A DNA stretch of 64,000 bases from Hormiphora californensis (lineage: Eukaryota; Animalia; Ctenophora), in assembly GCA_020137815.1 (NCBI GenBank), contig CM035352.1, forward strand, positions 2,480,001 to 2,544,000, in the 5' to 3' direction. How positions within the stretch are numbered: position 1 is the first letter of the stretch; each line of letters opens with the position of its first letter. The notes under the pieces are model-generated. The model was not told the origin of the DNA and ran no database searches. It was given only the letters and a program-made list of their open reading frames with translations. The position numbers and the translations under genes were made by a program. Positions 56,772-61,151 of this stretch are shown here, piece by piece.

Positions 56772-59700
56772 CTAGCCGAGGCCCCCGATTCTCCAGCCGT
56801 AACTGCCGCCGTCCCGATACAACGCATTGATTCCTCCTGCTATAGCCCGTTCCTCATCCGTGTTAACCACGAGAATCCTGGGAGATTGGTTGTGGTCCCT
56901 AGAGATATCCCGGACCCCGCCGACACTTAATCTAGGGAGGGTCGTGAGAGTGCCCTCCCTACAAACTAGCTTCCGTAGCAGACCACTGTTCTCTCCAATA
57001 CCTCCGGTAAAGATAACGCAGTCAACCTTTCCTTCCAAGATCTCTGTGTACGAACCTATATTAAAGGGGAATCCGTGGTTAGGTTCACAAATGATATGGG
57101 ATTCGATGCATTCCATCGCACGACAAAAATGAAGAGTCAAAGATAAATGAACCACAATATTGTGCTTACCAAGAAACTTTTTTGCGGAATAAGCTACCAT
57201 ATTCATAGCTAGAACGGCTCTTGGATCTCCCTTTTTATACGCTTTCTCAACAGTTAGGCTGTCTGACACACCAGCAATACCGAATAGTCCTGATTTGTTT
57301 TGTAGAAGGTCATCAACTTGGCTAACGGACATTCCTTCCTCTGAAGGGGGAAAAATTTATTTGAAAAGAGCTTCTAAACGAGGAATTATATGGTGGGATT
57401 TCGATCGGACAACTAATTGAACTAACTGATAGGGTATAAGGGATATGATCCTTGATGGAAATTACCTTGGATGAGTTTCAGTGGGATTGAGGGATCCAAG
57501 TCACCTGATCTGGTGCCCATGGGAAGGCCTGCTAGTGGTGTGAAGCCCATCGAAGTGTCAATAGATTTACCATCCTTTATACAGCACACACTGCATCCAT
57601 TGCCTAGAGAATGAAGAACATCGTGATAATAACACAAATCTATATTATAAAGCAGAGATGGTTGCAAGACAAAATTTGGGGGAGGGGGTTTTTAGGGTTT
57701 GCACGTGGAAAATTGGCGTGTTGTTAGGGATGGTTGGTGGGGTTTGGGGCGTGCACGTGTGAATGTAAAGGTTTTATAAATTTGGGGGATAATAGCTGAT
57801 TTGAAAGAGCTTAAGATTATCTTTCGAATGAGCCCAAGATTTTCGAAATTGGTTGAGAAATGACTGAGTAATGGGGGAAATGGTGAACAATGATGGAAAA
57901 TGTGGTGCTCTGAACTGCTTCAGATCACAGATTGAGAGAGGGGTTAGGGAAGTGTTCCTTATGGCGTTATAGGAAAGTGAATACCTAGAGGGTGAGATGA
58001 CGTGAATAGGGGACGATATGATTCAATAGGGGCCGAGGGGAGTCAATAGGGATAAGAGGGGTGAGGACTGAGGGGAGTCAACAGGGGGAAGGGGGCGTGG
58101 AGTATGATCTCGCGACCGGAGGTGCCGCGAAGCGGCGCCGTAGGGAGCAAAGTAGGCATGAGCCGGGGATCGGGATTGAGAGGAGTCAATAGAGTGTGAG
58201 AGTTTTTTGTTCTTTTGCCTGGGCTCTCTAGTCTTAATTATAAAGTACAAATGAGTGGCGTGGTGAGGATGATGACCTATCATCACGTGCAAATAGAGGG
58301 GGTTGCCAAGGAGGTGCCATATCCCTTACGCAGCGGGTGATTGAATGCTGCACGTGCGGGTTGGTGCAGCGGGTGAGAGGGGTGCTCCTGGGTGATCAGG
58401 GATAGTGTGGGGATTCGGGTCAACGGGCGCTCTACTCCAACGGGCTTTCTAGTATTCAATAGGGGGTATGTATAAACCCGGATAACCCGGATAGTCCGGA
58501 TAGTCCGGATAATTGATGTTTTCGAGATATCCGGATAACCAAGCTCGGATATGGGACTCTGGATAACTCGGATACTGAAATCCGGATAACTCGGATAAGG
58601 GTCCGGATAACTCGGATAAGGGTCCTGATAACTCGGATAAATGTCCGGATAACTCGGATAAGGGTCCGGATAACTCGGATAAGGGTCCGGATAACTCGGA
58701 TAAGAGTCCGGATAACTCGGATAAGGGTCCGGATAACTCGGATAAGGGTCCGGATAACTCGGATAAGGGTCCGGATAACCCGGATAAGGGTCCCATATCC
58801 GAGCTTGGTTATCCGGATATCTCGAAAGCATCAATTATCCGGACTATCCGGGTTATCCGGGTTTATACATACTAGGCTTCCCTAAGTGAAAATTGAAATT
58901 CATTATAAAATTTTCGGTCAATTTGTATTGGAAAGAGGACAAAAAAAGAAAATTTTTGGCGAAAACCGGAAGTCATAGGACTTCCTGGTTGCGCGCCGAC
59001 AGGCGAAGTAACAAAGAGCGCTGCCACCGCGTGCGCGGCTATTTTACTAAAATTTTTAGAATTTTGACAAAAAATCGAAAAAAGCTGAAAATTTTTGTTA
59101 CGCGCAGCGTTTTTTGGGAAAGCCGCGCCTTTTTAACCCTTATTAACCCTTATTAACCCTTTTTAACCCTTTTTAACCTTTTTTAACCCTTTTTAAGAAA
59201 ATGGGTTTCGGCATCCTCCCTGTGGTCGGCTAGCGGAGTTTGACACATTCTCCATCTTCTTTTAGACTCCCGATCAGCACACAAACTGACCGAAGTCCCA
59301 TAGTTTCGAAAACACAGATAGGGAAGCCTAAATTACATACCCCCTAATGTATCGTTACAAACTTTCCAATGAGAAACGGACATTGTATTTGCAGTGTATC
59401 ACACGATAAATCGGCGACTGAGCTTACCAAGATGAAAAGAAATGGCATTGAGATTATCCTTTTGTAGAAACTTTGCAGCCTGGCCTAGGACATATTTGTG
59501 GGATGTCCCATGAAAACCATAACGGCGATATTTCACAGCTAGCTCCCCAGGTAACGGATACGTGTGGGCGTAGTCAGGAATTGTACTGTGGAAAGCAGTG
59601 TCGAATACCGCAACCTGAAGAATTAGGTTTTCTGAAGAAGTCGAAGCTTCTTTTTAAGACACGATAGATACACTTCGCAAAGTGTATCGTGTCTTATAAA

Positions 59701-61151
59701 GTATAGAGCAATTGTGCACTAATTGCATAAATGCATAATATGATACATGTTTGATTTCTTTTCGCTTGAGTGCCGAGTGGCCTTTGAAAGGATTTGCCGA
59801 ATGAATCAAGTATTTTAGAGATCCGCATCGTGTGGGAGTTTATGCGACCTAATCACGCATCATTCATTATGTTGGTTAAATATGTGCTTAGAATACTGCC
59901 AGTGCAGCAATTGTGCTACGTAGATGATCTCTCTACTTAGCGAAATGGTGTAAAACTATCTGAGATACTGGTCTCTGCAGCTTTCTCTTTATTTTTGTCG
60001 TTGACTGCAAATTGTTTCGTGCCACAATGCCACACCTGTTACAAAAAACAGCTGTTTCCTATAATTGATACGTATCTAGTTTGATGTGCGGTAACAAGAT
60101 TTGCAGTCGTCACTTTCTGTAGTGGGTATATGGCCCATTTTGCTATTTGTTGTATGTAGTACAACCTGTACATATATTTTTAAGGTTAATTCATTTGCAA
60201 AACTTAGAAACCTAATTCCCTCCGGTCCTACCTATATTGAGTAGTATAACATATGCCTTGAAGTTGAATATTTTTTACTACTGGCTAGGTGTAACTGTGT
60301 GATCGAGAGTTCTTCTAGCAGCAGCAATCACATGATTTTCCTCCTACCTGGTGAGCGGTGGGGAAGTGATCCTTGGCTGCTCTAATCCCTGCTACATTGT
60401 GGGGGTTGTGTAGCGGCGCTAGAGAGGAGAGAGAAGATAGAGATCTGAGAGTGGTGCTGTCCACTAGGCAAGGTTTGGTGAACTGGGACCCTCCGTGAAC
60501 GACTCTGTGTCCTACACATTCCACTGGGTCTCTGTGGGGTTAGATGAGTTAGTTAGCTTTAGTGTTAAACTAACTGGGTTTCTTCTGTTAGAGCATTGGC
60601 CTGACCCTGTAATATTCTCAAAGAGAACCGCGGTAGGAACATTGACGTGCCAGGGATTTTTTCAAAAATGTTATCGCTATCGTTTATTTGAAACACTCGT
60701 GTTGCCAGTTAATTAAGATCCAATTAAAATACCTGGTGAATGATTTAGTGAATTTAGCTACGGCACTGAGGGCCGCCTCGTGAGTTGGGGAAATGAGATT
60801 CTGATGGCAGACCACTTCCTCTGTGTCAGAACACTTGATCTTCAACCCAGGTTTCACATCACGAGATACTGTCAGTCCTGTGTGGGAGAAATATAATGTC
60901 ATTAATTTGATGCTATATAGGCCATATGCTGGCATGCTACGGCACAGAATGGGCGAAAAAAAGGAACCATTGATATGCTGTATCTCTGATATCTAAAGAA
61001 AATACAACATTGTACGAACTACGAGGAAAGGAACCCTACCTGAGGCAACTCCGGTTGCGGTAGGTACAAGACCATCCGGGCGGGCACTAAATAAACTAAA
61101 CTTTAGTGAACTACTCCCGGCATTGAGGACCAACAACGATTTACGTGTCAT
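56772..61151 (-). CDS. ackA: Acetate kinase, 7 exons: 61151-61040, 60877-60733, 60531-60348, 59614-59428, 57603-57466, 57340-57170, 57055-56772 (1221 nt, 406 aa)
   Basis: All hallmark motifs splice in frame: [98 protein letters not shown] and NTDEERAIA. Confidence 0.95.
58461..59345. mobile_element. Inverted-repeat element with a 21-bp internal tandem array (CCGGATAACTCGGATAAGGGT)n and a second MITE (58873-59330) nested in its right end
   Basis: Outer ends AGGGGGTATGTATAAACCCGGATAACCCGG ... CCGGGTTATCCGGGTTTATACATAC[insert]TACATACCCCCT. Inner TIRs TAGGCTTCCCTA / TAGGGAAGCCTA. Confidence 0.75.

Follow-up and report, generated by a model that had tools for sequence, protein, structure and literature searches.

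A selectively maintained acetate kinase gene in the genome of a comb jelly

The window analyzed here, a 64,000-nucleotide (nt) stretch of the Hormiphora californensis genome (GCA_020137815.1, contig CM035352.1, positions 2,480,001 to 2,544,000), contains a gene for acetate kinase (ACK; AckA in bacteria), known in the literature from bacteria, a single archaeal genus and eukaryotic microbes (PMC5517563). The locus raises the question of whether an animal encodes a working acetate kinase and, if so, what the enzyme does there and where it came from. We find that the gene is host-encoded, a domesticated animal gene integrated in the host genome, and that selection keeps it functional. We further propose, with about even confidence, that the enzyme would convert acetyl phosphate and ADP to acetate and ATP as the final, mitochondrial step of a taurine route, and that it would be of bacterial origin.

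Gene structure, selection and integration in the host genome

The gene comprises seven minus-strand exons, running from 61151 to 56772 in window coordinates, separated by six GT-AG introns of, in order, 162, 201, 733, 1824, 125 and 114 nt; its coding sequence as assembled (1221 nt) encodes 406 aa. Residues are numbered as in the Methanosarcina enzyme (MtACK), from an alignment with 1G99, and the features are as follows:

61040–61151, minus strand: exon 1, with the first Met of the catalytic domain and the PHOSPHATE1 motif; PF00871 match at E 7.5e-4, under the cut-off
60733–60877, minus strand: exon 2, without a Pfam match alone, alignable to the Mnemiopsis orthologue
60348–60531, minus strand: exon 3, with the equivalents of Arg91, Val93, Leu122 and His123
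59428–59614, minus strand: exon 4, with the equivalents of Asp148, His180 and His208
57604–59427, minus strand: intron 4, 1824 nt, containing a 1.7-kb high-copy repeat insertion (about 57639–59345)
57466–57603, minus strand: exon 5, with the equivalents of Asn211, Pro232, Gly239 and Arg241
57170–57340, minus strand: exon 6, with LOOP4, in which Asp283 is kept, Phe284 is Ser and Arg285 is Leu
56765–57055, minus strand: exon 7, with the ADENOSINE motif Gly331-Ile332 and Glu384; corrected stop at 56765–56767 (assembled end 56772)
56834–56836, no strand: surplus assembly base, missing from all four haplotype contigs, which shifts the frame of the tail

PF00871 (Acetate_kinase; ASKHA) matches five of the six exon stretches scanned (exons 6 and 7 as one), four of them above the curated cut-off of 22 bits; the stretch without a match is exon 2. 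Coding GC is 0.49 and GC at third codon positions (GC3) is 0.47, inside the range of six other coding stretches in the window (GC3 0.44–0.78).

Variants and coverage were taken from contigs of two DNA studies of one organism label, the best-covering one of which may be the assembly's own sample. Across 56762–56901 the four haplotype contigs of two samples all have one base fewer than the window: those of X1 and X3 have 139 letters for 140 window bases, and both X5 contigs are without the base at 56834–56836. Because of this single surplus base in the assembly, the last ~20 residues of the 406-aa model are frameshifted. In the frame without it (near 56835) the stop lies at 56765 and the protein has 408 aa; the corrected tail matches P0021 at 91% over 96 aa, and the tail variants comprise 5 silent and 4 replacement changes in the corrected frame versus 2 silent and 7 replacement changes in the assembled one. 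The original prediction, a 406-aa AckA with six GT-AG introns, is upheld in its exon-intron structure and amended in its length and tail. Retention of the stop-free 114-nt intron 6 was rejected because an X3 allele carries indels of +4 and −8 within it; the exon 6-intron 6-exon 7 read-through, used as a protein query, retrieved only 20 distant proteins (26–35% identity).

The pattern of variation is that of a gene under purifying selection. Among the variants listed, which were kept by support and not by effect and beyond which further ones exist, 31 are coding substitutions, 25 of them silent. Within residues 1–385, 20 of 22 substitutions are silent and 2 are replacements, whereas neutrality would give a silent share of 0.245 (P 8e-11; pN/pS, the ratio of replacement to silent polymorphism, about 0.03). 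Most of the allele indels listed fall outside the coding sequence, in introns or the 3′ flank; those inside it are, besides the assembly error, a 3-base deletion in the tail that keeps the frame and an insertion in exon 6.

The locus is heterozygous in two samples of two studies, and contigs of X3 and X5 span all 30 of its bins; runs X7 and X8 gave no cover of the locus, which is no proof of absence. One run presumed to be RNA gave three short pieces, <90% alike, and, having no control gene, is uninformative on expression. Summed depth over the exons is similar to that over the flanks, and intron 4 is hundreds of times deeper, a depth that is not a copy number and marks a very common repeat. 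The 1.7-kb insertion in intron 4 is polymorphic: one X5 contig has a joint at which 1707 bases are skipped, and both flanks are covered by a single X3 contig of 852 nt. The gene lies to the right of an assembly gap (Ns, 54031–54130), across which it has repeats in common with the DNA on the left, namely 58237–58461 with 46262–46470 (85%), 57632–57752 with 46151–46034 (89%) and 60585–60654 with 30547–30620 (77%). The original prediction described the intron repeats as shared with a DONSON intron and with 30547; the sharing with DNA at 46 kb and at 30547 is confirmed, the place of the 46-kb copy inside a DONSON intron being putative.

That the gene is a contaminant, bacterial or from a non-animal eukaryote, or a dead pseudogene might be suspected from its position to the right of the gap and from the frameshifted tail of the assembly, but the spliceosomal introns, the repeats common to the left side, heterozygosity in two samples of two studies, purifying selection, a Mnemiopsis orthologue on a chromosome-scale contig and the origin of the frameshift in an assembly error all argue against it (the original prediction had already held the introns and host repeats to speak against bacterial contamination), so that this explanation is largely refuted and extremely improbable.

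Intron 4 also contains a nested element resembling a miniature inverted-repeat transposable element, with a 21-nt tandem array between inverted arms of 77–95 nt (58466–58872), and a 19-nt inverted pair (58454–58472 and 59334–59352). A short inverted-repeat element is present on both sides of the gap (63584–63803 and 40226–40454), and a long (GAAT)n microsatellite lies upstream of the gene (62250–62800). Elsewhere in the window are a plus-strand DONSON homologue (46800–47945; exon 47075–47344 confirmed against 8Q6O, E 9e-8) and, on the minus strand at 48800–50540, a gene of apparently three exons whose product is a highly acidic repeat protein rich in Ala, Glu and Ser. Neighbors identified by Pfam between 2326 and 41724 are ordinary for a eukaryote: a PI3/PI4 kinase, a UBA protein, a single-exon EamA transporter (7818–9023), an RA-domain protein, actin, a mitochondrial carrier and ANAPC15.

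Active site and predicted localization

Twenty-one of the 22 hallmark residues checked are kept in the host protein, including the catalytic and PHOSPHATE1 residues (Asn7, Ser10–12, Lys14, Arg91, His123, Asp148, His180, His208, Arg241 and Glu384), the acetate pocket (Val93, Leu122 and Pro232) and the ATP-type ADENOSINE motif Gly331-Ile332, plus Asn211 and Gly239. Residue roles in the acetate pocket and the ADENOSINE motif follow published descriptions (PMC4390882 and PMC5517563), as does the replacement of the Gly-Ile pair of ATP-using kinases in the pyrophosphate (PPi) enzyme of Entamoeba. The only hallmark change is that of Arg285 (LOOP4) to Leu; the prediction that all catalytic motifs are present holds for the other 21 residues and fails for this one. 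Residue 285 is Leu in 5/5 sequences of a ctenophore clade, Leu or Ile in 5/5 of a copepod clade (see below), and Arg in 372 of 386 other sequences; among 401 aligned sequences, a D-S-[L/I] loop is found only in these two animal clades and in the fragment P0160.

Arg285 lies flat on the adenine ring and is described as important but not essential: MtACK carrying Arg285Leu still turns over, its kcat being about 7–9-fold lower and its Km for both ATP and acetate higher (PMC4390882, PMC5517563). Because this engineered variant retains activity, the host enzyme should, by analogy, be active, and we infer that the change to Leu would bias it away from the acetate-activating direction. It is distinctly unlikely that the Leu/Ile loop of the animal clades reflects the use of a different nucleotide acceptor or acyl phosphate; the narrow distribution of the loop and the stacking of Arg285 on adenine would fit such a change in specificity, whereas the residual turnover of MtACK Arg285Leu and the unaltered acyl pocket and ADENOSINE motif argue against it. 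An AlphaFold model built from a four-sequence alignment was poor (pLDDT, the predicted local confidence, 55) and was set aside.

Upstream of the catalytic domain there is one further candidate feature:

61152–61617, minus strand: candidate N-terminal extension; an in-frame ATG lies at 61331, the first Met is preceded at 11 nt by an acceptor site, and 61617–61521 may be a further exon upstream

Read from the ATG at 61331, this region has 60 codons with neither a stop nor an acidic residue, as do 1.2% of shuffles (the stretch having been chosen post hoc); no similarity was found between it and the extension of the Mnemiopsis protein. The latter is basic and nearly without acidic residues, and in composition is like a mitochondrial presequence. 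Judged by composition only, N-terminal extensions that are basic and have no more than one acidic residue occur in P0178, P0023 and 4/4 of the copepod-clade proteins examined, and the Amoebidium parasiticum acetate kinase (P0052) has a 52-aa presequence-like end. These N-terminal features of relatives suggest that the host acetate kinase may act in mitochondria.

Relatives and evolutionary origin

A protein search over 1.84 billion representatives gave 1179 matches, among the best 150 of which there are three close proteins. With P0023 as the query (7998 candidates scored), the best 120 matches include KAL5264471.1 from Mnemiopsis leidyi (17.4-Mb contig; database label 'hypothetical protein'), P0179 and P0022, the others being at 38–46%. 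The host protein is 58.6% identical to KAL5264471.1 over 389 aa and at most about 45% identical to the prokaryotic sequences listed. From their position in the tree only, P0023, P0179 and P0022 appear to be ctenophore proteins. L001 (P0022) is continuous across the intron sites of the window, without introns, as in a spliced transcript. The match to P0036, on a 772-kb contig, starts exactly at the intron-6 boundary of the window, which suggests that this intron is shared and hints at a great age.

With P0031 as the query (7997 scored), the best 120 matches are headed by Eurytemora LOC111716268 (three isoforms) and three further clusters, followed by Pseudoalteromonas. The copepod clade consists of P0298, P0419 and P0301 (LOC111716268), P0031, P0297, P0299 and P0300; LOC111716268, from a calanoid copepod, is 'uncharacterized' in RefSeq and belongs to an intron-bearing clade distinct from that of the ctenophores, with about 38–43% identity between the two. 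An orthologue is thus present in a second ctenophore, and the occurrence of a copepod clade, by which the enzyme is not confined to comb jellies, weakens the original interpretation on this point. Mnemiopsis and Eurytemora are the only animals named among the matches listed, other named matches including the acetate kinases of Amoebidium (an ichthyosporean) and of one oomycete; no sponge, cnidarian or placozoan name occurs among these matches, which are mostly nameless, so that absence is not implied. P0160, a 163-aa fragment with a D-S-L loop and no close Atlas cluster, is placed between the copepods and Gammaproteobacteria, and might represent a donor lineage or else a third group of eukaryotes.

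Support for the ctenophore clade is full, and its stem is long (0.86–0.87). In a maximum likelihood (ML) tree under LG+C20, from a shortened search begun from the best tree in which supports may be inflated, the copepods group with P0160 (94.6/96, Shimodaira–Hasegawa-like approximate likelihood ratio test/ultrafast bootstrap, SH-aLRT/UFBoot) and are nested with marine Gammaproteobacteria (91.8/97); the ctenophores adjoin this copepod-Gammaproteobacteria group with weak support (75.8/64), apart from Amoebidium and without a supported sister group. Approximately unbiased (AU) tests, performed with 39 rows, 389 columns, 5000 replicates and shorter constrained searches (22 rows, mostly long-branched and nameless, omitted), gave p values of 0.13 for ctenophores with copepods, 0.31 for these with P0160, 0.25 for ctenophores with Amoebidium, 0.08 for all three and 0.07 for all eukaryotes. 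On the choice between transfer and retention posed by the original prediction, bacterial transfer is favored, yet the AU tests reject neither holozoan inheritance nor an origin in common with copepods. When viruses and bacteria were searched for a carrier or a donor having the D-S-L loop, one ordinary viral match and no donor emerged; nothing close was found on plasmids (best 47%), and the best match in 401 gammaproteobacterial genomes was at 48%.

An old bacterial transfer into early comb jellies is our best guess, somewhat favored over the alternatives, and not a result. The alternatives, which concern origin only and together carry an appreciable though smaller weight, are vertical inheritance from unicellular holozoans with loss in most animals, and a single origin shared with the copepod enzyme. 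Vertical inheritance is rather unlikely: an acetate kinase with a presequence-like end occurs in Amoebidium, an ichthyosporean, whose grouping with ctenophores the AU test does not reject (p 0.25), but the LG+C20 ML trees separate the two and Amoebidium retains D-x-R. An origin shared by the ctenophore and copepod genes, although compatible with AU p values of 0.13–0.31, the common LOOP4 motif and a FastTree tree that joins the two at about 0.9, is unlikely given that the copepods nest with marine Gammaproteobacteria (91.8/97); the FastTree join may be attraction because both animal clades are long-stemmed.

Proposed function and comparison with known systems

Acetate kinase requires a source of acetyl phosphate, a metabolite that, to our knowledge, is not assigned to animal metabolism. 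We regard the case for taurine as this source as evenly balanced. In such a route taurine would be transaminated to sulfoacetaldehyde by an AGXT2-like enzyme, Xsc would split sulfoacetaldehyde into sulfite and acetyl phosphate, and the host acetate kinase would recover the phosphate bond of acetyl phosphate as ATP, releasing acetate. The route is modeled on Taurinivorans muris, in which Tpa makes sulfoacetaldehyde, from which Xsc releases sulfite and acetyl phosphate for conversion by AckA to acetate and ATP (PMC10507020). Xsc would then be a likelier partner than Pta or phosphoketolase, which the original prediction had expected. Xsc is present in 36 of 401 Desulfobacterota-type genomes, with ackA beside xsc in 8 of 30 fetched loci. 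Open reading frames (ORFs) flanking bacterial ackA/xsc loci matched only the kinase exons in the window, the presence of Pta among those ORFs not having been ascertained; neither Xsc nor a taurine transaminase was seen in the window by this comparison.

Several observations weigh against the proposed mitochondrial, Xsc-fed enzyme of bacterial origin. The xsc-linked bacterial AckA proteins are 36–41% identical to the host protein, no closer than others, and D-x-R is kept in all six whose motif was inspected, so that there is no sequence tie to Xsc-linked kinases. P0179 has no N-terminal extension. None of the five alternative origins was rejected by the 39-row AU tests (p 0.07–0.31). The exon 6 insertion, of 1 base at 57297 in one X5 contig, may be erroneous, mark a null allele or be compensated by an indel outside those listed.

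Other sources of acetyl phosphate fare less well. Fermentation by Pta and AckA, the idea of the original prediction and a pathway of Chlamydomonas and many bacteria, would turn acetyl-CoA into acetate and ATP when oxygen is low. It is the commonest role of AckA, the active site is compatible with it, and it might relate to the hypoxia tolerance of ctenophores. It is nonetheless an unlikely role here; the ORFs around bacterial ackA/xsc loci, among which the presence of Pta was not ascertained, match the kinase exons alone. Clean-up of acetyl phosphate as a by-product, limiting non-enzymatic acetylation in mitochondria with ATP incidental, would require no dedicated partner and would fit both the strong constraint and the presequence-like ends of relatives, but it too is improbable, since most animals seem to manage without such an enzyme, Mnemiopsis and Eurytemora being the sole named animals among the matches listed. 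A phosphoketolase-AckA pair as in fungi, with acetyl phosphate from sugar phosphates, is a pairing known in eukaryotes but is very unlikely: of the acetate kinases with solved structures, the fungal one (4h0p) matches most weakly (137 bits versus 302 for Thermotoga).

A constrained acetate kinase in two animal lineages implies that acetyl phosphate is handled there and that substrate-level ATP formation is possible. If Xsc feeds the kinase, taurine, an osmolyte that is abundant and that zooplankton release in large amounts (PMC5724677), would have its carbon-sulfur bond cleaved by animals. More tentatively, we suggest that comb jellies might possess a complete mitochondrial pathway from taurine to sulfite, acetate and ATP with an acetate kinase derived from a bacterium, and that their calanoid copepod prey might have acquired the same enzyme, lacking the same adenine-stacking arginine by convergence or from one donor lineage; pelagic animals would then be a sink, besides a source, of marine taurine. 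The gene further offers a case in which transfer can be weighed against ancient loss at the base of the animal tree, and a natural Arg285 variant that is open to a cheap enzyme assay.

In a literature search that did not extend to most subscription papers, no animal acetate kinase came to light. The ctenophore literature searched makes no mention of the enzyme; searches combining acetate kinase with metazoan horizontal gene transfer (HGT), bdelloids, choanoflagellates or copepods, or concerning animal phosphoketolase, returned unrelated work only, and the Xsc/taurine literature searched was bacterial or symbiont work only. There was no match in one supplement each of PMC6005172, PMC11184263 and PMC11797021; the main text of an HGT compendium does not contain 'acetate', and its tables (PMC13342648, PMC12637581) might list the gene.

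Among known systems, nine confirmed HGT genes of Mnemiopsis (PMC6005172, Table 3) are, like the gene described here, intron-bearing and encode enzymes of non-animal origin in ctenophores, although acetate kinase is absent from the functions listed in that table. The Tpa-Xsc-AckA system of T. muris resembles the proposed route in the conversion of Xsc-derived acetyl phosphate to acetate and ATP, but differs in that here the host is an animal, the genes would be unlinked and no DsrAB respiration is implied; the xsc-linked bacterial kinases are not close relatives. The acetate kinases of microbial eukaryotes (the PPi-using Entamoeba enzyme, 4H0O; Cryptococcus, 4H0P; green algae; oomycetes; Amoebidium) are likewise eukaryotic, some with presequence-like ends, but the ML trees do not group them with the host protein, in whose adenosine pocket the Gln-Met block of the Entamoeba enzyme is also missing.

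The closest functional comparison is with bacterial and archaeal AckA (EC 2.7.2.1, PF00871; Thermotoga 2IIR, Methanosarcina 1G99/1TUU): the Mnemiopsis orthologue matches 2IIR over its full length (E 5e-89; Atlas TM 0.94), and the host protein shares 21 of 22 hallmark residues with these enzymes. In contrast to them, the host gene has six spliceosomal introns, its product has at most about 45% identity to the prokaryotic sequences listed and carries Leu for Arg285, and relatives of the host protein have presequence-like ends. The copepod enzymes (LOC111716268 and four clusters) are, like that of the comb jelly, animal acetate kinases with a presequence-like end and a D-S-[L/I] loop, but they differ in their ~38–43% identity, in the replacement of Asn211 by Ser or Ala, and in being nested with marine Gammaproteobacteria. 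What these comparisons describe is a known enzyme in an unexpected kingdom, twice, sharing an active-site change and plausibly serving a new pathway, with both named animal proteins so far labeled hypothetical or uncharacterized in public databases.

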